A stretch of 64,000 nt of DNA. It comes from Bacteroidota bacterium (lineage in GTDB: Bacteria > Bacteroidota > Bacteroidia > Bacteroidales > VadinHA17). The notes beneath the pieces were generated by a model. That model made no database searches. It was not told where the DNA came from and worked only from the letters and a program-made list of their open reading frames with translations. Position 1 is the stretch's first letter, and each line of letters begins with the position of its first letter. Position numbers and translations under genes: made by a program. Below are positions 33,496-46,058 of the stretch, piece after piece. The stretch lies in assembly GCA_018262715.1 (NCBI GenBank), contig JADFDS010000041.1, positions 5,697 through 69,696 of the forward strand, written 5' to 3'.

Positions 33496-36400
33496 TTATC
33501 GCCTCAGCGCTTTCCTGTATGCATATCCGGATGCAACAGCCAGGCTGATGAGCACCGCCACTGCCACGTAGACAAACGCCGGTACCGGCACTGCATCGCC
33601 GCCGGCATAGGAGTGCAACCCCGACAGGTAATAGTTGACACCAAAATAGGTCATCAGCACCGACGAAAACGCAAACAGCGAAAGGAGATTGAATATGTAC
33701 GTGTCCTTCATCCCCGGCATCATCCTCGAATGGGTCACGAGGGTGTAAACAATGATGGTGATCAGTGACCATGTCTCCTTCGGATCCCACCCCCAGTACC
33801 GGCCCCATGACTCATTGGCCCATACAGCGCCGAGGAAAGTACCGATGGTCAGGAAATAGAGCCCCAGGGTCAGAGTCCTGTAATTGATAACCGTAAGCTC
33901 ATCTATCACGGCACTGATCCTCGCCCTGTTACCTTCATGGATGAACAGCATCATCACAAGAACGACTATCCCGAGGATGGCGCCCAGCCCCAGGAAACCG
34001 TAGCTGCCCGTGATAACGGAGACATGCAGGGTAAGCCAGTATGACCGCAACACGGGAACCAGGTTCGTTATCTCCGGATCCATGAAGCTCAGGTGAGCAA
34101 CCATCAGTGTCAGTCCGCCAAGAACAGAGGTGGCTGCCAGGGTCAGAAGTGATTTCCTGCTGAAGATCAGCCCGGCAAGCAATGTCACCCATGAGATGAA
34201 CAGCATTGATTCATAACCGTTGCTCATTGGCGAATGCCCGGAAATATACCACCTGATACCAAGACCAATTGTATGGAACAGGAAACCGGCAGCCACCAGT
34301 CCTGCAAGCACCCGGAGGACTGCTCCCCTGAGCTCCCTGCCCCTGATAATCATCGTAATGATGGTAATTATCATTATGAGTCCGACGGTGGCGTACCATG
34401 GGAAAAGCCTCTCAAATATCCTGGCCCTGTAATAGAAGAGTTCGGCCTTTACCTTGCCCTCTGAAGGCAGTTCATACCCGGCATAACGAAGCTGGTAGTT
34501 GGTGAGCGCGGTGATATAGTCTGCCGGGGGAGCCATCGGGCGCCCCACTGATGTCACAGACTGAGCCCACAGCGGAACAACACCCATCACAAAGAGAGAA
34601 TCCTCCCGGCTGATGCCGTGCCTGACAGCCTCCTCCGCACTTCCCCAGTGATCAGTGCCGTCGCGCAGCGGAAATATCTGCATGAAATCTCCCCTTGACA
34701 TCATATAGCAAATATTGACTCTCTCGTCCACCTTGATTACTTCCTTGTCAAACTTCGTGCGCTCAGTCACACTCTTTGCATAGGCTTTGTCAACAAGTGA
34801 AGCAAGCAGGTAGCCGCCGCCTTCACCCATCTTTACGATATCGGAGAAAGCCGCCTTTTCGCCCTTAAGGTTAAGCTCACGGCGGAGCTCCTCGTTTGAA
34901 ACCTTTATGAGGGGCACATTCTGCCAGTGATAAAAATCAAGCGAGCATCCAAGGAATACCTGCATGGGTGACATCCCGTCAAAACTATTCTCCCTCGACA
35001 CCTTCCTCAGGATGTCACTGCTGATGGTATAGAGGGGTTTTGTCCTGCCTTTCTGATCCTGTGCCAGCACCGCACCGAAACTGTCTGCCGCCTTCCGCTC
35101 TATAACCAGCTGCTGACTCTTCAGCGGTGACAGGGAAGTCAGAAGAAGCAAAACAAGGGCAGCAGCAGGTTTGCGGTAGTTCGAGGTCCAGTGTCCGGGA
35201 GCCACTGTGCGGAAGAATGATTTCCTGTTAAGAAGTGAGAGTATTATGAAAAGGAACAGCAAACCATAACCGGTGTAAGTGGTGTACATCCCCGCCGGAT
35301 CATGGTTGACAGACAGGACAGTGCCAAGCTCGTCATTATCATAAGACGACTGGTAAAAACGGTAACCGCGGTATTTCAGGATATGATTCATGTAAATGTC
35401 ATAAGGCATACCGGTGCCGTGTTCCGGATCGCTGAGAGTCACCCTGCTCCTGAATCCTGACGGACTGCTGGAGCCGGGATACCGTTCCACGACAAAGTCG
35501 TCAAGCCTGAGGCTGAAGGGCAGTTCCCTTCCGCTGGCGCCGTAACTCACCCTGGCAGTAAGTCTGCCGGCATTACCGTTCCATACCGACCGCTCTTCCC
35601 CGCCGTCATCCCAGAGCCAGATTCTTTCCTGAAAACCATCACCTTTAAGGGAGAACTCCAGCGCCCCCCCGGGACCTTTTCCTGCCGCAGTGGCAGAGGG
35701 CACTATGGTACCGCTCAAGGTCATCATCTGGGGCATTATCCTGTAGCTCCCGGCAGTGTAAACGGTGCCTGCCATCAGTGGCACAAGAGAGTCAGCAGGG
35801 TATTCTGCCGATTTCATCTCCTGCATTACCGTCGACCTGAGTCCCGTGGATGAACTGATAAAGAAAGAGTTTCCGTCATTTGTCACGGAGATGTCTGCCG
35901 GGGTTCCGAAACCGGCCTTCATATCACCTATCATCGCCGACTCTCCCAATGCCAGAACCAAAGTTTCGCTGCTGACCATGTCCGGTGTGAATAGCAGGGA
36001 TACCATTGGTTTTCCTCCGGGAGTCTCCTGCACCGTTTTTACGGCGCCGGCAACGTACCTTTCGAAGGTCAGGGCAGCTTTTGCCCCGTCAGCCTCAAGG
36101 CTCTTCCTGTATTTGCCATGCCGGCCTCCGGAGATGTTCAGAGGTGCTGAGTGACTGTCAAGGATGGCGCCATCATTCCCCGCAAGCTCGAATGTAAGAG
36201 TGTTGCCGGAGGAGAATGTGACATTTGAGGAGTATCCCTCCCTTATATGCATCATGCCGTCATAACCAGTAAACCTGGTTATTGCGGCGCCTGCCACCAT
36301 AACTATAAATGCTGCATGAAAAAGGAGAACGGTAAGCTTTTCCCTGCGCCACAGCCTGAAGGTGTAAATCTGCCCGACCAGGTTCAGGGCCAGCAGCAAA

Positions 36401-36576
36401 AAGAGCAGCTCAAACCACCTGGTGTTGTATACTGCTGCCCTGGCAGCTTCCTGTCCGAAATCATTCTCGATGAACGTTGCTGCAGCCATCGATGCTGCAA
36501 GAGCAATGAAGAGTACACCCATCATTGCAGGAGAAATCAGAAACCTTAATGCTTTCATTAAATCAATTTGATGCAA
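33496..36576 (-). CDS. ccsBA: Fused system II cytochrome c biogenesis protein CcsBA (ResB-like plus CcsA heme-handling domains)
   Basis: 1026 aa. N-terminal ResB-like TM segments and a large periplasmic domain. C-terminal CcsA domain with the Trp-rich WWD motif WGRYWGWDPKETWSL and flanking His residues. Confidence 0.85.
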   Translation of the reverse strand: MHQIDLMKALRFLISPAMMGVLFIALAASMAAATFIENDFGQEAARAAVYNTRWFELLFLLLALNLVGQIYTFRLWRREKLTVLLFHAAFIVMVAGAAITRFTGYDGMMHIREGYSSNVTFSSGNTLTFELAGNDGAILDSHSAPLNISGGRHGKYRKSLEADGAKAALTFERYVAGAVKTVQETPGGKPMVSLLFTPDMVSSETLVLALGESAMIGDMKAGFGTPADISVTNDGNSFFISSSTGLRSTVMQEMKSAEYPADSLVPLMAGTVYTAGSYRIMPQMMTLSGTIVPSATAAGKGPGGALEFSLKGDGFQERIWLWDDGGEERSVWNGNAGRLTARVSYGASGRELPFSLRLDDFVVERYPGSSSPSGFRSRVTLSDPEHGTGMPYDIYMNHILKYRGYRFYQSSYDNDELGTVLSVNHDPAGMYTTYTGYGLLFLFIILSLLNRKSFFRTVAPGHWTSNYRKPAAALVLLLLTSLSPLKSQQLVIERKAADSFGAVLAQDQKGRTKPLYTISSDILRKVSRENSFDGMSPMQVFLGCSLDFYHWQNVPLIKVSNEELRRELNLKGEKAAFSDIVKMGEGGGYLLASLVDKAYAKSVTERTKFDKEVIKVDERVNICYMMSRGDFMQIFPLRDGTDHWGSAEEAVRHGISREDSLFVMGVVPLWAQSVTSVGRPMAPPADYITALTNYQLRYAGYELPSEGKVKAELFYYRARIFERLFPWYATVGLIMIITIITMIIRGRELRGAVLRVLAGLVAAGFLFHTIGLGIRWYISGHSPMSNGYESMLFISWVTLLAGLIFSRKSLLTLAATSVLGGLTLMVAHLSFMDPEITNLVPVLRSYWLTLHVSVITGSYGFLGLGAILGIVVLVMMLFIHEGNRARISAVIDELTVINYRTLTLGLYFLTIGTFLGAVWANESWGRYWGWDPKETWSLITIIVYTLVTHSRMMPGMKDTYIFNLLSLFAFSSVLMTYFGVNYYLSGLHSYAGGDAVPVPAFVYVAVAVLISLAVASGYAYRKALRR

Positions 36577-36578
36577 AT

Positions 36579-37274
36579 CTATCCCTTTTCGGAAATTACC
36601 AGCAGTTTTTCCCTGTTGAGTATCCTGACAGACCTGGGAGTGGCATGAATAATATTTTCGTTTTCAAACTCACCGATAATTCTTACGACGCTCTCCTTGG
36701 CCATATTGGTCATTTCGCCCAGTTCCTGGCGTGAAAGCACCATCTCAAATTCATCGGAATGGAAAATGGAATCTGAAAAATAAAGCAATGCTTCGGCGAG
36801 CCTCCCGTGCATCTTTTTCTGGGTCAGGTTAAGCATCTTCTGGTGGAGCCTCAGTGCCTTGTCGCTGAGGTCTTCGATAAAGCCTGCCGCGAAGCCGGGG
36901 TTGGCTGAAATCACATTCCTGATGACGTCAAAGTTGATAAAGCAGGCCTGCACATGTGTGATGGCCGCCACGGAATAACAATAGCGGGAGTTGACATGAA
37001 CTCCCGGACCAGCCAGCAGGGTTTTTGATTCTGCCAGGTTGAGTATGAGATTCTTCCCTGCATACCCTTCCATATATACTTTTGCCAGTCCTGACAGAAG
37101 GAATATTGCATTGGAAGATGGCGAGCCCTGTTTGATGATTATCTCCGATGGTTTGAAGGTTGCCTCATATCTGTTCTTGTTGACGAGTTCCAGTTCCTCT
37201 GCGGAGAGGGTCTTGAAGTTCGACCAGCACCTTGAACAGAATTCACAGCTGATTATCTTGTTATCTGTGTACAT
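36579..37274 (-). CDS. Crp/Fnr family transcriptional regulator, FNR-like (N-terminal Cys cluster)
   Basis: cNMP-binding-like beta-roll plus a C-terminal HTH (SRQELGEMTNMAKESVVRIIGEF; the E and R of the FNR E--SR recognition motif are present). Cys10-x2-Cys13-x2-Cys16 plus Cys111 just before the dimerisation helix mirrors the FNR [4Fe-4S] ligand layout. Stops 2 nt before ccsBA. Confidence 0.8.
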   Translation of the reverse strand: MYTDNKIISCEFCSRCWSNFKTLSAEELELVNKNRYEATFKPSEIIIKQGSPSSNAIFLLSGLAKVYMEGYAGKNLILNLAESKTLLAGPGVHVNSRYCYSVAAITHVQACFINFDVIRNVISANPGFAAGFIEDLSDKALRLHQKMLNLTQKKMHGRLAEALLYFSDSIFHSDEFEMVLSRQELGEMTNMAKESVVRIIGEFENENIIHATPRSVRILNREKLLVISEKG

Positions 37275-37349: not shown

Positions 37350-37363
37350 TTGATCTTTGTCAA
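37350..37363. promoter_or_regulatory. FNR/CRP-type box TTGATCTTTGTCAA (TTGAT-N4-GTCAA)
   Basis: One mismatch to the FNR consensus TTGAT-N4-ATCAA. It lies in the divergent intergenic region, 76 nt from the regulator ATG and 114 nt from the hexaheme gene ATG. It shares TTGATnTTTGTCA with the site at 42027. Confidence 0.5.
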
Positions 37364-37476: not shown

Positions 37477-38544
37477 ATGAAAAAAAGTCTTAAATTTGCC
37501 GCGCTTGTTGTTTCAGCAGGTCTTATAATGGCCTCCTGCGAAGGGCCGATGGGTCCGGTTGGTGAAGATGGTCCCAAGGGCGACAAGGGTGATCCCGGAA
37601 CAACTCTGGGATGTGCCGAATGCCACAATCCCGGCAGCCCGATGTCAGCTTTCTCCGCACAGTGGAGTGAGTCGACTCACGCAAAGGGGGGCAATGCAGC
37701 ATATGCCAACAGGGCCGGCTGCGTACAATGTCACACCAGCCAGGGATTCCTCGAGTATCTGGCGGAAGGATCAACGGCCAACATAGCTGTACCCGATAAT
37801 CCGATGCAGATCAACTGCGCCACATGCCACAAGATTCACGAGACCTACTCAGCAGCTGACTGGTCCCTGACCAAACCGGGTGCACAGACACTGGAGGTAA
37901 AGTACGCCGGCGCTGATGTCATCTGGGACAAAGGGAGCAGCAACCAGTGTGCTTTCTGTCACCAGTCACGCACTGTCTCTCCTGCGCCCGCAGTCAACGG
38001 AGCTGACTTCAACATAACCAATACCCGCATGGGACCTCACCACGGTCCGAATACCAATCTCATCCTCGGCAAGACTCCATTCGAGCTCCCTGGAGAAGCT
38101 CATCCGACCACCAATCCTCACTCAACTGCCAACGGATGCGTTACCTGCCACATGTCAGCCCCCTACGGCTATCTTGCCGGCGGGCACAACATGGGAGTAT
38201 GGTATGACAGCCACGGGACAGAGACATTGCTTAAGACCGGATGCACAACATGCCACACCAATACCACCACCCTTGATACCAAAATAGCTGACCTTAAATC
38301 TGATATAACAGAAAAGATGGCAAGTCTTGAAGCACAGCTGATTGCAGCAGGCATTTACAACTCCGCGACCGGGCTTGCCAAAACCGGCACATTCAAGGCA
38401 AATGCGGTTCTTGCATACCTGAACTACAACACTGTCAAGGAAGACCGCAGCAACGGTATTCACAACCCCGGGTACATCAGTACATTGCTTGATAACTCAA
38501 TTGCAACAATGGAGGCCCTGGGTTACCCGGTTCCCGGAAAATAG
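37477..38544 (+). CDS. Hexaheme c-type cytochrome lipoprotein with N-terminal collagen-like (G-X-Y)6 segment
   Basis: Lipoprotein signal MKKSLKFAALVVSAGLIMASC, then GPMGPVGEDGPKGDKGDPG. Six CXXCH motifs (CAECH, CVQCH, CATCH, CAFCH, CVTCH, CTTCH). No CXXCK. Confidence 0.8.
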   Translation: MKKSLKFAALVVSAGLIMASCEGPMGPVGEDGPKGDKGDPGTTLGCAECHNPGSPMSAFSAQWSESTHAKGGNAAYANRAGCVQCHTSQGFLEYLAEGSTANIAVPDNPMQINCATCHKIHETYSAADWSLTKPGAQTLEVKYAGADVIWDKGSSNQCAFCHQSRTVSPAPAVNGADFNITNTRMGPHHGPNTNLILGKTPFELPGEAHPTTNPHSTANGCVTCHMSAPYGYLAGGHNMGVWYDSHGTETLLKTGCTTCHTNTTTLDTKIADLKSDITEKMASLEAQLIAAGIYNSATGLAKTGTFKANAVLAYLNYNTVKEDRSNGIHNPGYISTLLDNSIATMEALGYPVPGK

Positions 38545-38610: not shown

Positions 38611-39027
38611 CTACTTTTTAAGTGTTCTCATATAGTTGACGATACTCCAGATCTCATTATCAGGAATCTTCTTGTCATATGCCGGCATCTCGCCTCTGCC
38701 CATCTTTGTCTGGTAAAACATCTCTCCATCAGTGAATCCCTGGAAGGCGGCGCCTGAGAAGTCGCCCGGGAATGTTTTGCACATTCTTCCCTTCGGGCCG
38801 TCACCCAGGCCTGTCTTGCCATGGCATGAAGCGCAGTTCTTGTTATAGGAAACCATGCCAGCCTTGACTGACGCATCATCCTTGGCGACGGGATTGGCCA
38901 TCTTCTTGTACTCTGCAGGGATTACCCACGGTTCTCCCTTCTTCTGCTGGGCATTTGCCGTTACTGAAGCAAAGGCGAACAGGGCTGTTGCCAGCACAAC
39001 GGAAATAGTTTTAAATGTTCTCTTCAT
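38611..39027 (-). CDS. Class I monoheme c-type cytochrome (periplasmic)
   Basis: Signal peptide, single CASCH motif and a distal Met region (GRGEMPAY). 138 aa. Confidence 0.8.
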   Translation of the reverse strand: MKRTFKTISVVLATALFAFASVTANAQQKKGEPWVIPAEYKKMANPVAKDDASVKAGMVSYNKNCASCHGKTGLGDGPKGRMCKTFPGDFSGAAFQGFTDGEMFYQTKMGRGEMPAYDKKIPDNEIWSIVNYMRTLKK

Positions 39028-39056
39028 AAACCTTGATTTTAATTAGACTCATATTA

Positions 39057-39677
39057 TTAATGACTCTCCTGCCAGCCGGTGATGATACTCCTGAAATTAC
39101 TAAGGGGTGATTTACCCATTGTGCTGACATAGAGGTGAATAAACAGGAAAATTACAACCAGGAACCCTAGGATTACATGGAACTGGTCTGTGAGGAACAC
39201 GCCGCTGAATCCCAGGAACCTCTTGAGTATGAACTCCGGGAACATCAGCGCCCATCCCGTGACAAACAGCATCGGGAGGACAAAATACATCACTCCCACA
39301 TATGAGACCTGCTGCAACGGATTGAACTTGCGGTTGCCGGTGACGGGAAAAGGAGACTCTTCTCCTTTAAAATAACCGAATCCATAATAGCGGGCCTGCT
39401 TCCAGAGCCTTTCAGCCATACCCCTGATGGCAATCAGGTAGTGTCTGCCGTTTTCGGTAAAGATATTTCCGATAACAAAAGCCGTATAACTGATCGTAAG
39501 GAGCACGCCGCACACATTATGAATCGAGACTGCCCGCTGGAATTTCACAACCAGGGCACGGTCAGGATCGGAATAAAGCATGCTGAATCCTGTCACAATC
39601 AGGAACAGGCACAGGATGGCGTTTGTTAGGTGCCATAACCTGACCCAGACCGGATAATGGTAAAAATTCTTACTCAT
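39057..39677 (-). CDS. Membrane cytochrome b subunit (Ni/Fe-hydrogenase / FdnI / PhsC-type cytochrome b family)
   Basis: 206 aa with 4-5 TM segments. N-terminus ..YPVWVRLWHLTNAILCLFLIVTGFSMLY is typical of PF01292-like cytochrome b. Conserved His in the TM helices (WHL, IHNV, FHV, FIHLY). Confidence 0.7.
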   Translation of the reverse strand: MSKNFYHYPVWVRLWHLTNAILCLFLIVTGFSMLYSDPDRALVVKFQRAVSIHNVCGVLLTISYTAFVIGNIFTENGRHYLIAIRGMAERLWKQARYYGFGYFKGEESPFPVTGNRKFNPLQQVSYVGVMYFVLPMLFVTGWALMFPEFILKRFLGFSGVFLTDQFHVILGFLVVIFLFIHLYVSTMGKSPLSNFRSIITGWQESH

Positions 39678-40674
39678 GAACTATCTTCTTCCGTTTGATA
39701 ATGATCCTGAAAAATGTGTGCACCATGGCTATTGCAATTGTCATGCCAATAAGGAAGAGACCTGTGAAGGATATGAATTTGCTTCGGTTGGCTCCAATCA
39801 CATACGATTCATTGCGCAGGATCACCCCGTTGAGAAAGCCCTTTTCAACACGGGTTTCCTGGGCGACATATTTATAAAGTGTACCCATCAGGATTGAGTT
39901 CTGGCTGTGACATTCGGCACAACCCTGAACAGCACTGTCAGCCGGCATAACCTCATGAGCCACGAGGACACTGTCATTCATCCTGGTGTGGCAGTCAATG
40001 CACCTGACAGCCTCCATGTGACGATCGACATCGGGCAGCCATTCATGCTTCGGCAGCACGATACTGACATTCTCGTCATTAATCAGACCCATCACATCAG
40101 AGTTACCATGGCACCGGAGACACATCTCATTTGAGCGGATGATATATTCCCGGCCTCCCGTGGTTTGCCTGGCAAGAGGATTGTAATAGTGAGGGTCATG
40201 ACATTTCCAGCATGTTATCAGCCCTTCTGTGGCAGTATAATGGATGCTGCGCTGATACTCGGCATCGATCTCCTCAAACCTGTACTGGGCATAGTTCGGG
40301 TCGTAGCCATGACAATCAATGCACCCCCAGGAACTCTCAAACCGCGTTTCAAGCGGATGGGGAAATGTCTTGAACCCCTCAGCATGACAATCGAGGCAGT
40401 TAAAGCTCCAGTGCACAGAATTGTAGAACATGTCGGGTACAACCAGGTTATGTTCAGACATGAGCTGTTTCCTGGTGGTTCCCGTGGTGGTGTCGGTAAG
40501 AGAATAAACAAGTCTGCCGTGGCATACCAGGCAGTTGTTCTCATTGTCTTCTGCGTAAAGGCTGTTTGAGGCTCCGCGGACCGACTTTACCGTATCAGTC
40601 TCCTGGCCGGCCGCATCAGGGCTTGCAAGGAGAGGCAGAAAATAAAGTAAGAGCAGCAGCTTTCTTATGATCAT
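39670..40674 (-). CDS. Heptaheme c-type cytochrome with C-terminal membrane anchor
   Basis: Signal peptide. Seven CXXCH motifs (CLVCH, CLDCH, CIDCH, CWKCH, CLRCH, CIDCH, CAECH). C-terminal TM helix FISFTGLFLIGMTIAIAMVHTFF followed by basic residues. Its stop overlaps the cytochrome b start by 8 nt. Confidence 0.8.
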   Translation of the reverse strand: MIIRKLLLLLYFLPLLASPDAAGQETDTVKSVRGASNSLYAEDNENNCLVCHGRLVYSLTDTTTGTTRKQLMSEHNLVVPDMFYNSVHWSFNCLDCHAEGFKTFPHPLETRFESSWGCIDCHGYDPNYAQYRFEEIDAEYQRSIHYTATEGLITCWKCHDPHYYNPLARQTTGGREYIIRSNEMCLRCHGNSDVMGLINDENVSIVLPKHEWLPDVDRHMEAVRCIDCHTRMNDSVLVAHEVMPADSAVQGCAECHSQNSILMGTLYKYVAQETRVEKGFLNGVILRNESYVIGANRSKFISFTGLFLIGMTIAIAMVHTFFRIIIKRKKIVHE

Positions 40675-40687
40675 AATCCTTCTTCTG

Positions 40688-41524
40688 TCAGAACCGTACT
40701 GTCACATTCAGTCCTATCAGGAACTTACCGTCACTGATACTGTTCTGGTTGTATACAAAGTTATACTGTCCGAGGATATCTTTGTAATTTGCAAAGAAAA
40801 TCTGGAATGCATGTGTAGCTGTCCCTATCTCCCATCCCAGTGCCAGCTGTGGTTTGGCATTCAGAGACTCATCCTTCTGGCTGCTGAAGAGCTGGTCATA
40901 CTCGGCTATTATGCTGTGGGAGCCGGTCACATTGTACCTTGCACCGGCCGAGATGCCGTAATGGGCGTTCTTATAACCCACCTCAACGGCATTGAGCCAG
41001 ATAAATGTGGGCGCAAGCTGCAACGAAAGCTTCGTTCCGAACTGGCGCGCCACCAGGATCTGGTTGAAATATGAAAGACGGTGGATTTCACGCCAGTCAT
41101 GAGCCGGACCAAATGTATTCTGATTCAACAGGTTAATCCCCATATTACCGTAGTAGCTCAGTGATACGGGAACCGAACCTGACGAAGTCTGCTGCAGTAT
41201 GGCAAACTTCACCGCCAGATCCTGTGCCTTGTAGTTCTTGGCAGTACCTATGCCGATCATCAGTCTGTCAGTAATGCCGTAATTGAGCCCCAGGCGGATG
41301 TTGGCAGGGGCCCACAGGCCGAAGAGGTCATCAAGGGCATTGTTCACCGTCCCGAAACGGTGATGAATTTCAAACTCGAGCATGCCCTTGAAAGGCGTTG
41401 CCACAGTCTGATTATCAATTAAAATACTGGTCTCAAAAACCCTTACCGGGTAATCTTCGCTATCCTGGCAGAACACCGGGATAGTAATCAGGGCCAGAAT
41501 GACGGATATGACAATTTTTTTCAT
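40688..41524 (-). CDS. Outer-membrane beta-barrel protein (DUF5777-like, uncharacterised)
   Basis: Signal peptide, alternating hydrophobic beta-strand pattern throughout, C-terminal ..GLNVTVRF (terminal Phe). The motif MLEFEIHHRFG reminds me of DUF5777. Confidence 0.55.
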   Translation of the reverse strand: MKKIVISVILALITIPVFCQDSEDYPVRVFETSILIDNQTVATPFKGMLEFEIHHRFGTVNNALDDLFGLWAPANIRLGLNYGITDRLMIGIGTAKNYKAQDLAVKFAILQQTSSGSVPVSLSYYGNMGINLLNQNTFGPAHDWREIHRLSYFNQILVARQFGTKLSLQLAPTFIWLNAVEVGYKNAHYGISAGARYNVTGSHSIIAEYDQLFSSQKDESLNAKPQLALGWEIGTATHAFQIFFANYKDILGQYNFVYNQNSISDGKFLIGLNVTVRF

Positions 41525-41552
41525 GGTTGACTTTATTAAGGTTTCCTGGAAT

Positions 41553-41918
41553 CTAATTTTTTTCTGCTCCCTGTGTAGCCCACAGTTTTATGACATCCGT
41601 TGCCGGAATCAGAAGCGTGTCAATCTGCAGCATCTGCGATCCGAACGCTGTTATCGAAGAATGAATAGACAGTACCCTGCTTGAAGCTGGTGTTACTGTA
41701 TCAACATTTGCCGAGAGCTTGTCATAAGTCCGGTCAACGGTCCACGCTCCGTGGCAGCCCTGGCAGAATGGCTGAAGTGTTTCGGAGAAGCTCACCGTCA
41801 GATCCTGGGGTACTTCCTGCTTAGCCCAGGAATACTGTTCACACGAGGAAAGGGAAATCGCGCCCGCCACAACCAGGGCAGCCGCAAACGCTCTTGTAAT
41901 CCATGCCTTTCGCTTCAT
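41553..41918 (-). CDS. Small lipoprotein with a single CXXCH heme-binding motif
   Basis: Start chosen at MKRKAWITRAFAAALVVAGAISLSSC (lipobox LSSC). One CQGCH motif. The longer listed ORF start (41966) lies upstream of the candidate -7 box. Confidence 0.55.
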   Translation of the reverse strand: MKRKAWITRAFAAALVVAGAISLSSCEQYSWAKQEVPQDLTVSFSETLQPFCQGCHGAWTVDRTYDKLSANVDTVTPASSRVLSIHSSITAFGSQMLQIDTLLIPATDVIKLWATQGAEKN

Positions 41919-41941: not shown

Positions 41942-41949
41942 CAAATATA
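41942..41949 (-). promoter_or_regulatory. Candidate -7 promoter box (TATATTTG on minus strand) for the five-gene cytochrome operon
   Basis: Exact TAnnTTTG match 24 nt upstream of the ATG at 41918. Confidence 0.35.
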
Positions 41950-42026
41950 CCGGAATAAGAATACACCCCTCACGCAGTCAGGGCATATTTGGATTGATAT
42001 ACAGGTGTTTCTTGTCAACCCGGAAA

Positions 42027-42040
42027 TTGATATTTGTCAT
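42027..42040. promoter_or_regulatory. FNR/CRP-type box TTGATATTTGTCAT
   Basis: Shares 12 of 14 positions (TTGATnTTTGTCA) with the box at 37350. It lies 109 nt upstream of the operon start codon. Further TTGAT half-sites are at 41994 and 42092. Confidence 0.4.
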
Positions 42041-42154: not shown

Positions 42155-43861
42155 TCAGCTTACCTTATAGAGGCCAAGTGCTTTTTCCTCGAAAGAGCCG
42201 ATATACTCTGACCTCACGCGGTTTTCCGAGACAGCGAATGAAATGAACAACTCGGCCGAGGAGGTATAGCCGGCATCACGCTGGGCATCATGGAGCAGCA
42301 GGTAACCCATGACAATGTTGGCAGCCATCTCAACAAGGCGGCGTGCATGGAAATCTGTCAGTTCATTGTTGCCTGCAGAAACCACCTGTGCCACTCTCAT
42401 TTCATAATCACCGGCCAGGGAGACAAGTTCTTTCTTCAGGTGATCAAGTTCCGGCCTGAGCTCCTTCTTTTCATATTCACGTATCTGAGCCAGGTATCCT
42501 CCCGTTGTCACGCCCCTTATGGCAGCAACGACCTGCAACTGGGATGTGCCTTCATAAATGGATGTGATACGTGCGTCACGGTAAAGCCTCTCAACCGGGA
42601 AATCCTTTATGAAGCCTGCACCGCCGTGGATCTGAACAGCGTCATACGCTATCCGGTTGCACCACTCGCTGCTGATCAGCTTCACCATCGGGGTGTAGAT
42701 GTCTGCCAGCCTGGTGTTGTTCTTCAGATCCTCACGTTCCTCTTTTGTAAGCGGGCGTTCTGCCGCAATAAATGACCATGCCTTGTATGTGTCGACATAT
42801 CGGGCAGTCTCATAGAGGAGTGAACGCATCGCCTCAAGGCGGACCCTCATCAGGGTCAGCATCTCGTAAACAGCGGGAAACTGGTCTATCGTCTTTCCGA
42901 ACTGTTTCCTCTCAGATGCATATTTTCTGGCTTCCTCGTAGGCAGCCTGGGCTATTCCGACTGACTGTGCACCTACTCCCAGGCGGGCACCGTTCATCAG
43001 TGACATAACATACTTGATAAGGCCCATCCGGCGCTCACCTACCAGTTTTGCCGGTGCATTGCGGAAGACCAGTTCGCAGGTTGGTGAGCCCTTGATGCCC
43101 ATCTTGTTCTCGATACGTCTGACGATGACACCGCCGTCGGCCCTGTCATATACAAAGAGTGACAGTCCCCTGCCATCAGAGGTCCCCTCTTCGGAGCGGG
43201 CAAGGACGAGAGAGATTTCGGCATCGCCGTTGGTGATGAAACGTTTCACCCCGTTAAGCAGCCATGTACCCCCTGATTCGTCATAGTGAGCCTTGAGCTG
43301 CACTGCCTGCAGGTCAGACCCGGCATCCGGCTCGGTAAGGTCCATGGCGGCTGTAGCGCCTTTATTGAACCTGGGAAGGAATTCCTGCCTTATCTCGTCA
43401 GTGGCAAACTCGAGGATAGTCTCACCGCAGTCCTGCAGTCCCCAGATGTTTGCAAAGCCTGCATCAGCCCTTGAAACCAGTTCAGCAGCCATGACATATG
43501 GCACCATCGGGAAATTCAGTCCGTCATACTGCCTCGGGAAATTCATCCCTATCACCCCGGCCCTGGTGAGTGCCTCATGGTTCTCACGTGTGCCCCGGGC
43601 ATAGGTAACATGACCGTCAGCCACAGTGGGGCCCTCATGATCAACATCCTCCGCATTGGGAGCAATGACCTCGGCACAGATGGCGCCGATGATCTCCAGA
43701 ACCCTGTCATAGTTGTCCATGGCATCCTCGAAGTCATGAGGGGCATAGTCATATTTCTCCCTCTCCCTGTAATCCATCTCCTTCAGCCTGACGATCTTCT
43801 CCATCGCCGGGTGCTTCAGGTGGAACCTGAGGTCCTTGTTGTCAGTATAGAAATTTGCCAT
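42155..43861 (-). CDS. Acyl-CoA dehydrogenase (long form with C-terminal extension)
   Basis: ACAD motifs (..RFITNGD.. ; ..RITSIYEGTSQLQ..). 568 aa. Downstream of etfBA in the same orientation. Confidence 0.85.
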   Translation of the reverse strand: MANFYTDNKDLRFHLKHPAMEKIVRLKEMDYREREKYDYAPHDFEDAMDNYDRVLEIIGAICAEVIAPNAEDVDHEGPTVADGHVTYARGTRENHEALTRAGVIGMNFPRQYDGLNFPMVPYVMAAELVSRADAGFANIWGLQDCGETILEFATDEIRQEFLPRFNKGATAAMDLTEPDAGSDLQAVQLKAHYDESGGTWLLNGVKRFITNGDAEISLVLARSEEGTSDGRGLSLFVYDRADGGVIVRRIENKMGIKGSPTCELVFRNAPAKLVGERRMGLIKYVMSLMNGARLGVGAQSVGIAQAAYEEARKYASERKQFGKTIDQFPAVYEMLTLMRVRLEAMRSLLYETARYVDTYKAWSFIAAERPLTKEEREDLKNNTRLADIYTPMVKLISSEWCNRIAYDAVQIHGGAGFIKDFPVERLYRDARITSIYEGTSQLQVVAAIRGVTTGGYLAQIREYEKKELRPELDHLKKELVSLAGDYEMRVAQVVSAGNNELTDFHARRLVEMAANIVMGYLLLHDAQRDAGYTSSAELFISFAVSENRVRSEYIGSFEEKALGLYKVS

Positions 43862-43896
43862 TGCTGTTTCTTTTTGCGTTCAGACTGCTGTTGATT

Positions 43897-44916
43897 TTAC
43901 CTGGCGTTGGCCTTGTAGTATTTGATGAGCTTCGGAATGACCTCTGCCACATCACCGTTTATGACATAGTCAGCTATACTGTTGATGGGGGCCATCGGGT
44001 CATTGTTGATGGCGATGATCTTGCCGCTCTGGTTCATCCCGGCGGTATGCTGTATCTGACCTGAGATGCCGCATGCTATATAAAGCTTTGGCCTTACTGT
44101 CACCCCGGTCTGGCCTACCTGGCGTTCATGCCCGGCGTACCCTGCATCGACGGCAGCCCTTGAAGCAGCCACCTCGCCGCCAAGCACGGAAGCAAGCTCG
44201 TAAAGCAGGGCAAAATTCTCCTTTGATCCCATCCCGTAACCGCCGGAAACAATTATCTGGGCCGACTTGATATCCACCTTTCTGGCCTCCATGTGCCTTT
44301 CAATGATCTCCACGGCAAGGTCTTCGGGTCTGATGAAGGAGGCGACATCGATTTTCTTAAGCTCGCCTCTGTGGTTCCTGTTTACGATCTCGCGCTTCAT
44401 GACCCCCTCGCGTACGGTGGCCATCTGCGGCCGGTGGTCAGGATTGATGATGGTGGCAATGATGTTGCCGCCGAAGGCAGGTCTGATCTGGTAGAGCAGG
44501 TTTTTGTACGTGGTATCGGTCTTCTTGACATAGTGGTCGCCTATCTCAAGGCTGGTGCAGTCGGCCGTCAGTCCGCTGTGCAGGGCTGATGAGACCCTTG
44601 GGCCGAGGTCACGGCCGGTGGATGTGGCTCCCATCAGTGCAACCCCGGGTTGTTCCTGCCTGAAAAGGCCGGTGATCACCGAGGTGTAAGGCAGGGTGCG
44701 GTAGTGTTCCAGCACCGGATCATCAGCCACATGTACCACATCGGCACCATAGGGGAAAAGCTCGTTTTCAATGCCGTCAAGTCCGCTGCCGAGGACCACC
44801 GCTTCGAGGCGGCAGCCAAGGGTATTGGCCAGTGACCTGCCCCTGGTGAGCAATTCGAGGCTGACGTCGGCAGGCCTGCCTTCATCAAGCTCGCAAAAGA
44901 CGAATAGATTGTTCAC
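43897..44916 (-). CDS. etfA: Electron transfer flavoprotein subunit alpha
   Basis: FAD-binding C-terminal motif PKLYIACGISGQIQHTAGM. 339 aa. Confidence 0.9.
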   Translation of the reverse strand: MNNLFVFCELDEGRPADVSLELLTRGRSLANTLGCRLEAVVLGSGLDGIENELFPYGADVVHVADDPVLEHYRTLPYTSVITGLFRQEQPGVALMGATSTGRDLGPRVSSALHSGLTADCTSLEIGDHYVKKTDTTYKNLLYQIRPAFGGNIIATIINPDHRPQMATVREGVMKREIVNRNHRGELKKIDVASFIRPEDLAVEIIERHMEARKVDIKSAQIIVSGGYGMGSKENFALLYELASVLGGEVAASRAAVDAGYAGHERQVGQTGVTVRPKLYIACGISGQIQHTAGMNQSGKIIAINNDPMAPINSIADYVINGDVAEVIPKLIKYYKANAR

Positions 44917-44939
44917 TGCAACTATATTTTATCCGTTTA

Positions 44940-45803
44940 TCAACCAATTGTATGATTCTCAAGCAACTCCCTGACCAGTGACTCAACGTCTGCGTTTGAC
45001 GAGGTAAGGCGCTTCGACTCCTTTGCCTGGAGGATTACGTTCTCGATTTCCTTCACCTTTGTGGGTGACCCGGAGAGTCCGAGCTGTTCGGGATCAGCCC
45101 CGATGGCGTCTACGCCCCATTCGGTTATCCTGACGGATGACCTGCCTGCAGCAATGTAGTCAGAGCTTTCAGCCTGCAGTTCGGTGTCAGTGCGGGCATA
45201 CTTGTACTTCATCACCAGCCTGGCGTTGCGGTAACGGCATGCCGGGGCTGTTCCGTTCACTGTAACTACCAGCGGCAGAGGGGCTGATACTGTCTCCACT
45301 CCCCTCTCAAGACGGCGGCGAATGATCAGTTTTTCGCCCTCGAAATGCATCTCTTCGGCATAGGTCACCTGCGGCCATCCCAGCTTCTCAGCCACCTGCG
45401 GACCCACCTGGGCGGTATCGCCGTCAATGGCCTGCCGCCCTCCTATGACCAGGTCCGGCGCCAGCCTGTGCACTGCCAGCGCAAGAGCATATGAGGTGGC
45501 CAGCGTGTCTGAACCCGCAAAGGCCCTGTCAGTTAGCAGCACCCCGTCATCTGCACCACGGTACAATCCCTCCCGGATTATTTCCGCCGCCCTGACCGGA
45601 CCCATTGTGAGCAGGGTCACCGTTACCCCTTCATAACGCTCCTTTATTCGCAGAGCCTGCTCCAGGGCATTCAGGTCCTCGGGATTGAATATGGCAGGCA
45701 GAACGCTCCTGTTGACCGTCCCGTCAGCTTTCATGGCATCAGGACCGACATTTCGCGTATCCGGAACCTGCTTGGCAAGTACAACGATCTTGATTCCGTT
45801 CAT
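44940..45803 (-). CDS. etfB: Electron transfer flavoprotein subunit beta
   Basis: Start chosen at MNGIKIVVLAKQVPDTRNV (typical EtfB N-terminus). A TATATTTG box lies 23 nt upstream. The listed ORF adds 24 implausible codons. Confidence 0.9.
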   Translation of the reverse strand: MNGIKIVVLAKQVPDTRNVGPDAMKADGTVNRSVLPAIFNPEDLNALEQALRIKERYEGVTVTLLTMGPVRAAEIIREGLYRGADDGVLLTDRAFAGSDTLATSYALALAVHRLAPDLVIGGRQAIDGDTAQVGPQVAEKLGWPQVTYAEEMHFEGEKLIIRRRLERGVETVSAPLPLVVTVNGTAPACRYRNARLVMKYKYARTDTELQAESSDYIAAGRSSVRITEWGVDAIGADPEQLGLSGSPTKVKEIENVILQAKESKRLTSSNADVESLVRELLENHTIG

Positions 45804-45825
45804 CTCATTCTCGCTTTTGAAGTGG

Positions 45826-45833
45826 CAAATATA
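45826..45833 (-). promoter_or_regulatory. Candidate -7 promoter box (TATATTTG on minus strand) for etfBA-acd
   Basis: Exact TAnnTTTG match 23 nt upstream of the etfB ATG at 45803. Confidence 0.35.
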
Positions 45834-46058
45834 ACAATAAAACCATACCGCAAAACGGATGAAACTGAATTTCATTTATGCCGGTCGAAAGATATATGAT
45901 GTGCATTATGCTGTATATTATATTATTATGATATTTTCGCCGACCGGTCAATTAACACGTTCGAAACCTGAAACTTCTTTGTGTCGCGCTCTGCCACGGG
46001 TATTGAAAAATCAGTTAATTTCGTCGCCGACAAAATCACTTATTTTTTTTCCTCTCCG

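Follow-up and report, generated by a model that had tools for sequence, protein, structure and literature searches.

A conserved cassette joining a probable CbcBA-type oxidoreductase to a DUF5777 barrel and envelope cytochromes in uncultured Bacteroidales

Within a 64,000-nucleotide (nt) stretch of contig JADFDS010000041.1 (assembly GCA_018262715.1, positions 5,697 to 69,696, forward strand), referred to below as the window, lies an operon that is a real five-gene set in an uncultured anaerobic Bacteroidales bacterium. Its genes encode a monohaem lipoprotein (lipoC), an outer-membrane beta-barrel of the family DUF5777, a heptahaem cytochrome c, a cytochrome b and a class I cytochrome c. Taken with adjoining genes for a hexahaem lipoprotein, a Crp/Fnr-family regulator and the cytochrome c synthase CcsBA, the operon probably constitutes a respiratory cassette under anaerobic, FNR-type regulation, through which electrons of the menaquinol pool are passed out to cell-envelope cytochromes. 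The assignment of the cytochrome b (206 amino acids, aa) and the heptahaem protein to a CbcBA-type menaquinol:cytochrome c oxidoreductase of the inner membrane is well supported by sequence comparison, the oxidation activity itself being predicted. The outer-membrane step and the type of acceptor (extracellular, chelated or soluble) we infer. The genes of the cassette are the following (ORF, open reading frame).

41553-41918, minus strand: lipoC, monohaem c-type lipoprotein (121 aa; lipobox LSSC, one CQGCH)
40688-41524, minus strand: DUF5777 outer-membrane beta-barrel (278 aa, C-terminal Phe; PF19089, 242 bits)
39670-40674, minus strand: CbcA-like heptahaem cytochrome c (334-aa ORF; exactly 7 CXXCH)
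39057-39677, minus strand: CbcB-like dihaem cytochrome b (206-aa ORF; PF01292, 85.8 bits)
38611-39027, minus strand: class I monohaem cytochrome c (138-aa ORF; PF13442, 49.8 bits, and PF00034)
37477-38544, plus strand: hexahaem lipoprotein (355 aa; lipobox MASC, 6 CXXCH)
36579-37274, minus strand: Crp/Fnr-family regulator (231 aa; PF00027 and PF13545)
33496-36576, minus strand: CcsBA (ResB-CcsA fusion), system II cytochrome c synthase (PF05140, PF01578; TIGR03144)

Conservation of the cassette

The five operon genes are separated by gaps of 28, 13, -8 and 29 nt, the start of the cytochrome b gene overlapping the heptahaem gene by 8 nt. An original prediction, made from the DNA alone, had described these five minus-strand ORFs and their spacing, and both were found as described; the family assignments to PF01292, PF19089 and PF13442 passed as well. 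Each operon gene has homologues that number in the hundreds, and the five-gene order is kept in 65-76 of 80 related loci. For both reasons, these are real genes rather than chance ORFs. The start assigned to the 121-aa lipoprotein with its CQGCH motif is right, because that methionine is kept in 96% of 70 relatives.

The related loci were obtained from a scan of one genome per GTDB species, in which 423 stretches were found to code for a relative of the heptahaem protein; of these, the best 80 were analysed. These best 80 of the 423 come from uncultured Bacteroidota-type metagenome-assembled genomes (MAGs), except for one Chlorobiota MAG. Gene order, established by tblastn and by independent clustering of ORFs, runs from lipoprotein to barrel, heptahaem protein, cytochrome b, class I cytochrome c, hexahaem protein (opposite strand), Crp/Fnr regulator and CcsBA. 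By tblastn, the barrel was detected in 76 of the 80 loci, cytochrome b in 79, class I cytochrome c in 70, the Crp-type regulator in 68 and the hexahaem protein in 62. ORF clustering, which included the window locus, gave 70 for lipoC, 64 for the hexahaem protein, 69 for Crp/Fnr and 55 for CcsBA. Several of the loci that lack a gene are cases of a contig end. The cbcA-like and cbcB-like genes are adjacent in 79/80 loci, and the DUF5777 gene adjoins cbcA in every locus examined (82 in all). Two more DUF5777 genes were looked up independently, and the same cassette surrounds both. Since the order persists across the loci examined, the cassette holds down to approximately 43-47% identity in the heptahaem protein. 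The original prediction had called for a neighbourhood search for a conserved cassette, and a conserved cassette is what the related genomes contain.

The inner-membrane CbcBA-type pair

The heptahaem cytochrome has a signal peptide, seven invariant CXXCH motifs and seven more invariant periplasmic histidines, and therefore enough ligands for seven bis-His haems; the seven motifs are present in 78 of 80 relatives. Its C-terminal transmembrane (TM) helix is followed by a basic tail, with H319 and R323 invariant in the alignment and at least 97% kept across 80 sequences. The cytochrome b has four TM helices and four histidines (H16, H53, H167 and H181) that are invariant among 76 sequences. It matches the PhsC-like NCBIfam model NF011582 with 181 bits, below the model cutoff of 204, and no relative of it with a solved structure was found in the PDB.

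An exhaustive search of 1.84 billion representatives returned 596 relatives of the cytochrome b, the best 150 of which were inspected for their number of CXXCH motifs. Among these 150 are 49 long proteins with exactly seven CXXCH motifs ahead of the cytochrome b domain. The fusion protein P0365 is colinear with both window proteins, anchor histidine included, and its N-terminal half is 34% identical to the heptahaem protein. Because 49 such fusions exist in other organisms, the heptahaem protein and the cytochrome b are read as one complex. The same type of cytochrome b also occurs fused N-terminally to a NapC/NirT-like multihaem protein (P0371 and P0373). Twenty cytochrome b representatives looked up by cluster name were from Bacteroidales or Magnetococcales MAGs or carried the label "thiosulfate reductase cytochrome b subunit", with no Geobacter entry among the twenty. 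In the PDB, the heptahaem profile best matches 28pb_A (E 1.4e-6), a chain of 278 aa labelled "Cytochrome c", which is colinear with the heptahaem protein over haems 2-6 at 30% pairwise identity and has in common with it the motif WLPxxxLHxxAxxCIxCHT.

A characterized system with these features is CbcBA (Cbc5), a menaquinol oxidase of the inner membrane that is required for extracellular respiration at potentials below about -0.21 V (Joshi, Chan and Bond 2021, bioRxiv 10.1101/2021.04.15.440034). In that study, CbcB of Geobacter sulfurreducens is a dihaem cytochrome b with four TM helices, for which thiosulfate-reductase-like is the usual annotation, and CbcA is a seven-haem periplasmic cytochrome c with a C-terminal TM anchor, whose histidine is proposed to assist in the binding of a b haem; related clusters are noted in Bacteroidetes (Prolixibacter, Marinilabiliales and Labilibaculum) and cbcB-cbcA fusions in Chloroflexi. 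The window pair is likewise a split unit, composed of a four-TM dihaem cytochrome b and a seven-haem cytochrome c with a histidine in its C-terminal TM helix, encoded in the order cbcA then cbcB, and fused versions occur in other phyla. Given that CbcBA homologues had already been noted in Bacteroidetes, the inner-membrane design is not new. What differs is the set of partners: the Geobacter cluster includes the dodecahaem CbcC, whereas the window has instead the DUF5777 barrel, two lipoprotein cytochromes, a class I cytochrome c and CcsBA.

CbcL of G. sulfurreducens had been named as the counterpart in the original prediction. The likeness lies in a HydC/FdnI-like dihaem cytochrome b combined with a periplasmic multihaem c domain that oxidizes menaquinol. 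CbcL, however, is a single fusion that combines nine c haems with six TM helices, whereas the window proteins are split, with seven haems and four TM helices, and CbcL has no sequence homology to CbcB (Joshi et al. 2021, 10.1101/2021.04.15.440034). CbcBA is the closer counterpart, being split and having seven haems, four TM helices and the anchor histidine. The broader part of the proposal is supported: with its CbcBA features, the pair would act as a quinol:cytochrome c oxidoreductase such as Geobacter employs in extracellular electron transfer. Identities as nrfHA, Otr/Hao/MccA, alternative complex III (ACIII), PhsABC or Fdn/Hyd were rejected on the basis of absent catalytic partner genes, scores far below cutoff and wrong haem numbers; no characterized soluble-substrate reductase was matched, and synteny is strong.

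In approximately 25 of the 80 loci, three genes are inserted between cytochrome b and class I cytochrome c (for example, L016 9686-12856); they are absent from the corresponding position in the window (39027-39057). The inserted genes encode a 4Fe-4S protein with a twin-arginine translocation (TAT) signal (PF13247), an NrfD-family protein (PF03916) and a C-terminally anchored protein of approximately 300 aa without a Pfam match, and they look like a second, NrfCD/Cbc4-like quinone module within the operon. The TAT 4Fe-4S and NrfD-family genes of these relatives constitute the likeness to NrfCD-type modules such as E. coli NrfBCD, Geobacter Cbc4/CbcSTU and ActBC of ACIII; the window differs in having no NrfCD-like genes, no molybdopterin-like ActB part and no ActA, ActD, ActE or ActF. 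The earlier statement that the layout lacks ActB and ActC is correct for the window, but the operon of these relatives does contain NrfC-like and NrfD-like genes. Five loci encode a NapC/NirT-like multihaem protein of approximately 490 aa. Its gene is flanked by those of class I cytochrome c and the hexahaem protein in L060, L061, L068 and L070 and lies downstream of CcsBA in L011.

The outer-membrane barrel and the envelope cytochromes

The barrel matches the DUF5777 model over its full length, far above the cutoff of 23.1 bits. An AlphaFold2 model built from a 22-sequence alignment has 12 strands, with a predicted local distance difference test score (pLDDT) of 76 and a predicted template modelling score (pTM) of 0.74. 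Its Foldseek matches are generic 12-14-strand outer-membrane barrels (OmpG, FapF, NanC, Tsx and COG4313; TM-score ~0.5, ~10% identity). A type I signal peptide precedes an invariant Gln at +1. In the strand register, the invariant residues of the polar face include E50, R56, R77, N81, K106, Q155, Q169, E208, E232, N273 and T275, together with many glycines; an N-terminal 28-residue segment holds the invariant F30, E31, L35, N38, T40 and P44; H55 and H238 are invariant and H54 and H148 nearly so; and parts of the putative loops on both faces are invariant as well. We read these residues as the likely mark of a tightly constrained lumen or plug, not of a general porin. Over 40 complete loci, the barrel has a median identity of 85.6%, compared with 82.5% in cytochrome b, 68% in the heptahaem protein and 65% in lipoC. 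The barrel is therefore the best-conserved member of the cassette, which is unusual for an outer-membrane barrel. No mention of DUF5777 was found in the literature searched.

The original prediction had invoked porin-cytochrome conduits of the Mtr/Pcc type. In such a conduit, a cytochrome threaded through the DUF5777 barrel would wire the periplasm to a surface multihaem lipoprotein. Gene content is superficially Pcc-like, in that, as in MtrCAB and Pcc (OmaB/OmbB/OmcB), a barrel is encoded along with multihaem cytochromes, both periplasmic and lipoprotein ones, that come after a quinol oxidase. Both multihaem proteins of the window narrowly exceed the cutoff of PF22113 (MtrC/MtrF domain), and the barrel loops are unusually conserved on both faces. 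The barrels of those systems, however, enclose a multihaem protein, and a barrel of 278 aa and approximately 12 strands (12-14 in its fold matches) is too small for a multihaem cytochrome. The barrel of MtrB is built of 26 strands, and even Cyc2, with its single haem, needs 16, a comparison that excludes an enclosed multihaem wire. Pcc porins have approximately 20 strands. Moreover, none of 120 DUF5777 homologues (lengths 277-302 aa) is longer than 302 aa or contains a CXXCH motif, and the heptahaem protein is anchored by its C-terminus in the inner membrane. We consider a conduit of the Mtr/Pcc type very unlikely.

The lipoC gene is present in 70 of 81 loci (ORF clustering, window included), always directly upstream of the barrel gene. 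All that is conserved among 70 relatives is the lipobox cysteine and the glutamate that follows it (an invariant CE), the CXXCH motif and one C-terminal tryptophan; the alignment of the 70 contains no conserved Met or His as a sixth ligand. LipoC has no Pfam match, and its relatives give sub-threshold matches to PF13442, PF00034 and PccH. From these features, lipoC is classed as a divergent, fast-evolving class I-like monohaem cytochrome c, the haem of which may be five-coordinate or completed by a partner. A planctomycete PSCyt1-type domain, considered for its motif resemblance, was rejected, Pfam having given only the sub-threshold class I and PccH matches. The second monohaem cytochrome, class I cytochrome c, has a signal peptide, a CASCH motif and a conserved GxMPAY region with the Met ligand, and is predicted to be soluble and periplasmic. 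It is found in 65-70 of the 80 loci and is sometimes duplicated. The mature protein starts with an invariant Gln, as does the barrel and probably also the heptahaem protein, a feature consistent with the N-terminal pyroglutamate habit of Bacteroidetes.

A one-CXXCH cytochrome with a small barrel unable to hold a multihaem wire, and with a class I cytochrome c as periplasmic partner, recalls Cyc2 of Fe(II) oxidizers. Cyc2 differs in being a single polypeptide with a 16-strand barrel, whereas two genes here encode a lipoprotein cytochrome and a PF19089 barrel of approximately 12 strands; family scans gave no sequence similarity of lipoC or the barrel to Cyc2. In contrast to Cyc2, electron flow is probably outward. 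A reverse, Cyc2-like role would have lipoC and the barrel oxidizing Fe(II) or taking electrons from a partner or cathode, with the class I cytochrome acting as Cyc1 and delivering them by way of CbcBA to the quinone pool and to reductive metabolism, for example that of the adjacent electron transfer flavoprotein (ETF) and acyl-CoA dehydrogenase. The Cyc2/Cyc1 layout is indeed resembled; PccH, to which lipoC relatives give their sub-threshold matches, is a cathode-associated Geobacter cytochrome; and in 46/80 loci the operon is immediately preceded, on its own strand, by genes for ETF (etfB and etfA) and acyl-CoA dehydrogenase. Such uptake is nonetheless highly improbable, as the cassette encodes no oxidase or other energy-yielding sink, transfer from a high-potential cytochrome c to menaquinone would be uphill, the hosts are fermentative anaerobes with FNR-type regulation, and the cytochrome and barrel are separate proteins with no similarity to Cyc2 in the family scans.

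The remaining envelope cytochrome, the hexahaem lipoprotein, has six invariant CXXCH motifs and seven or eight invariant non-motif histidines. Its lipobox cysteine begins an invariant CEG, after which comes a collagen-like run of G-X-Y triplets (37543-37599; 6 triplets in the window and 3-11 in 59 of 64 relatives). Some databases label the protein "collagen-like". A literature search found no paper joining a collagen-like stalk, a multihaem cytochrome and a lipoprotein. Against PF02335 (NrfA) the protein scores 19.7 bits, below the cutoff of 24.1. Its profile matches NrfA in the PDB (3ubr, 2.4e-5) and octahaem nitrite reductases (ONR; 1.3e-4 for TvNiR and 5.6e-4), the aligned region taking in the final pair of haem motifs (CxxCHM...CxxCH), the long helices of the C-terminus and an SxGxHNP motif. 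The AlphaFold2 model (pLDDT 63) is poor in the haem-rich N-terminal half; all 27 top Foldseek matches are to OcwA, ONR or NrfA, with OcwA the best. An OmcS-type nanowire subunit was rejected, Foldseek returning no such fold match. We take the hexahaem protein to be a short, divergent member of the NrfA/ONR/OcwA superfamily, on the evidence of the profile and the model. It resembles that superfamily in the C-terminal module of two haems and long helices and in the SxGxHNP motif, and differs from it in having six CXXCH motifs, in its length of 355 aa versus 440-520 aa, and in being a lipoprotein with a collagen-like linker.

Because the hexahaem protein belongs to this superfamily, the cassette could be a periplasmic reductase system for a soluble acceptor (nitrite, hydroxylamine, NO, sulfite or another oxyanion), with the hexahaem protein as the catalytic enzyme facing the periplasm. 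CbcBA, the NrfCD-like module and the NapC/NirT-like protein would then be alternative quinol dehydrogenases, as NrfH and NrfBCD are for NrfA, and DUF5777 would be a substrate-specific channel. The NrfA/ONR C-terminal module with SxGxHNP, and top fold matches that all fall in that superfamily, fit such a system, as do the interchangeable quinol modules of the relatives. The twelve-strand NanC, KdgM and Tsx are solute-specific channels, His/Met class I cytochromes c are generally known as typical donors to periplasmic N-oxide reductases, and an FNR-type regulator with an adjacent CcsBA recalls nrf-type loci. On the other hand, the hexahaem protein has no CXXCK or other special active-site haem motif, its seven or eight invariant non-motif histidines could render all six haems bis-His, and the catalytic haem 1 of NrfA, which is N-terminal, has no counterpart in the linear alignment, itself weak. 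The best fold match, OcwA, is a surface terminal reductase for extracellular acceptors, CbcBA has so far been linked to extracellular acceptors only, and the monohaem lipoprotein paired with the barrel would be left without a role. A soluble-acceptor system is the strongest of the rival readings, though somewhat unlikely.

The reading that we favour remains export of menaquinol electrons to envelope cytochromes. Electrons would pass from menaquinol to the dihaem cytochrome b, to the membrane-anchored heptahaem protein and from its haem domain to the soluble class I cytochrome c, which would in turn reduce the lipoprotein cytochromes, that is, the monohaem lipoC and the hexahaem protein of the NrfA/OcwA superfamily. 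The hexahaem protein would most likely be the terminal reductase, as it is the constant partner while the quinol modules vary (CbcBA alone, with an NrfCD-like module or with a NapC/NirT-like protein). For the DUF5777 barrel, one of two roles is most likely: a single-haem gate formed with the monohaem lipoprotein, comparable to a split Cyc2, or a specific channel or anchor that brings acceptor and lipoprotein reductase together. In its full form, the first would make DUF5777 and lipoC a new and minimal route for electrons over the Gram-negative outer membrane, a two-protein, 12-strand, single-haem gate linking the CbcBA oxidase to a surface-exposed, collagen-stalked hexahaem reductase, a speculative and rather unlikely arrangement that we put forward tentatively.

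Several points weigh against the export reading. His/Met class I cytochromes c are usually of high potential, and this signature in the class I protein fits poorly with a very low-potential chain. Apart from one Glu, neither lipoC nor the hexahaem protein carries a clear signal for lipoprotein export of the Bacteroidetes kind. Confidence in the hexahaem model is low (pLDDT 63), and the fold matches of this model in the PDB are weak (Foldseek E 2e-3 or worse, TM-score ~0.3). At the inner membrane, 28pb_A is probably G. sulfurreducens CbcA, an identification drawn from a 2026 review that prints the CbcA structure code as "2BPB"; a literature search for the code "28PB" found no structure paper. 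Homology to GSU0594 (CbcA) and GSU0593 (CbcB) is likewise something we infer. Joshi et al. give three conserved histidines in CbcB and one in CbcA, whereas the cytochrome b here has four, with the anchor histidine as a fifth. The regulator here is of Crp/Fnr type with FNR boxes, not the sigma-54 regulator BccR; in favour of the CbcBA link, a regulator of BccR architecture (REC, sigma-54 AAA and HTH_8) does adjoin the cassette in 4 of the 80 relatives (L038 10478-11842, L046, L058 and L065). Finally, the cassette is known from the genes of uncultured organisms alone (80/80 loci).

Regulation and neighbouring genes

The transcription signals of the cassette are the following.

41942-42040, minus strand: operon promoter region, with a -7 element and a degenerate FNR-like site
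41942-41949, minus strand: Bacteroidetes-type -7 element TAtaTTTG, a sequence match
42027-42040, minus strand: FNR-like site ATGACAAATATCAA upstream of the operon, two mismatches to TTGAT-N4-ATCAA
38560-38597, unstranded: bidirectional intrinsic terminator, 17-bp stem with 7 GC pairs, A-run upstream and T-run downstream
37350-37363, unstranded: FNR/CRP-type palindrome TTGATCTTTGTCAA between the hexahaem gene and crp, one mismatch to TTGAT-N4-ATCAA

The -7 box and the bidirectional terminator of the original prediction are both present in this set. The terminator is common to the operon and the hexahaem gene, which is convergent with the operon and divergent from the crp/fnr gene only; its earlier description as divergently encoded has to be corrected in this respect. 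A scan with a sigma-70 promoter model, which is not applicable to Bacteroidetes promoters, found no excess of sites over shuffled sequence.

Sites matching TTGAT-N4-ATCAA with one mismatch or fewer occur in the hexahaem-crp intergenic region of 46/64 loci and, at a conserved distance, upstream of lipoC in 21/70 relatives, against a background of 0.11 sites per kb (~0.03 expected per region). Of the cysteines of the Crp/Fnr regulator, Cys10, Cys13 and Cys111 are 96-99% conserved across 69 sequences, whereas a fourth is present in 54%. Matches to the NCBIfam FNR/CRP models are weak, and FNR scores are far below cutoff. The conserved FNR boxes and the neighbouring cysteine-bearing regulator support the FNR-type control that had been proposed earlier. 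CcsBA matches TIGR03144 with 196.8 bits (cutoff 187.6), and every c-type cytochrome gene of the window lies beside it, within 33.5-42 kb. The CcsBA ORF is listed with a TTG start 2 nt past the crp/fnr stop; translation may in fact begin six codons further on, at a Met (MKALRF...).

In the window, etfB, etfA and a gene for a long acyl-CoA dehydrogenase (42155-45875, minus strand; compare L037 2619-4703, L081 and L082) immediately precede the operon on its own strand. In distant relatives, a membrane FeS/CCG oxidoreductase with a NarI-like N-terminus is encoded among the etf and acyl-CoA dehydrogenase genes. The etf and FeS/CCG set resembles an ETF:menaquinone input module and would suit electron input to menaquinone; the link between etf genes and operon may also be inherited synteny alone. 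In a subgroup of loci, L041 (10301-14833), L043, L045, L047 and L055, the operon is separated from the hexahaem gene by genes of a haem-uptake type. They encode a TonB-dependent receptor and two HmuY-like proteins, one of which has a type IX secretion system (T9SS) sorting domain.

Anaerobic digesters, sediments and aquifers hold large numbers of fermentative Bacteroidales, and electron transfer to metals, humics or other species is often attributed to them on suspicion, with no mechanism known. The cassette would give these bacteria a Geobacter-type menaquinol exit together with its own haem-attachment enzyme, regulator and envelope cytochromes. The literature searched holds no description of CbcBA in such a conserved association, with DUF5777, two lipoprotein cytochromes and a CcsBA and FNR-type regulator of its own. 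Cultured relatives reported to have cbcBA are Prolixibacter and Labilibaculum (Joshi et al. 2021, 10.1101/2021.04.15.440034). DUF5777, an uncharacterized family, is now placed in a specific respiratory context. A hexahaem protein that turned out to reduce a soluble substrate would add a new, short branch to the NrfA superfamily. If the barrel and lipoprotein move electrons or an acceptor across the outer membrane, the pair would be a compact new solution and a genomic marker for electroactive Bacteroidota. Should the single-haem gate prove true, extracellular conduits would have a third architecture in addition to those of Mtr/Pcc and Cyc2, one found in hundreds of uncultured anaerobic Bacteroidales species of digesters, sediments and groundwater.

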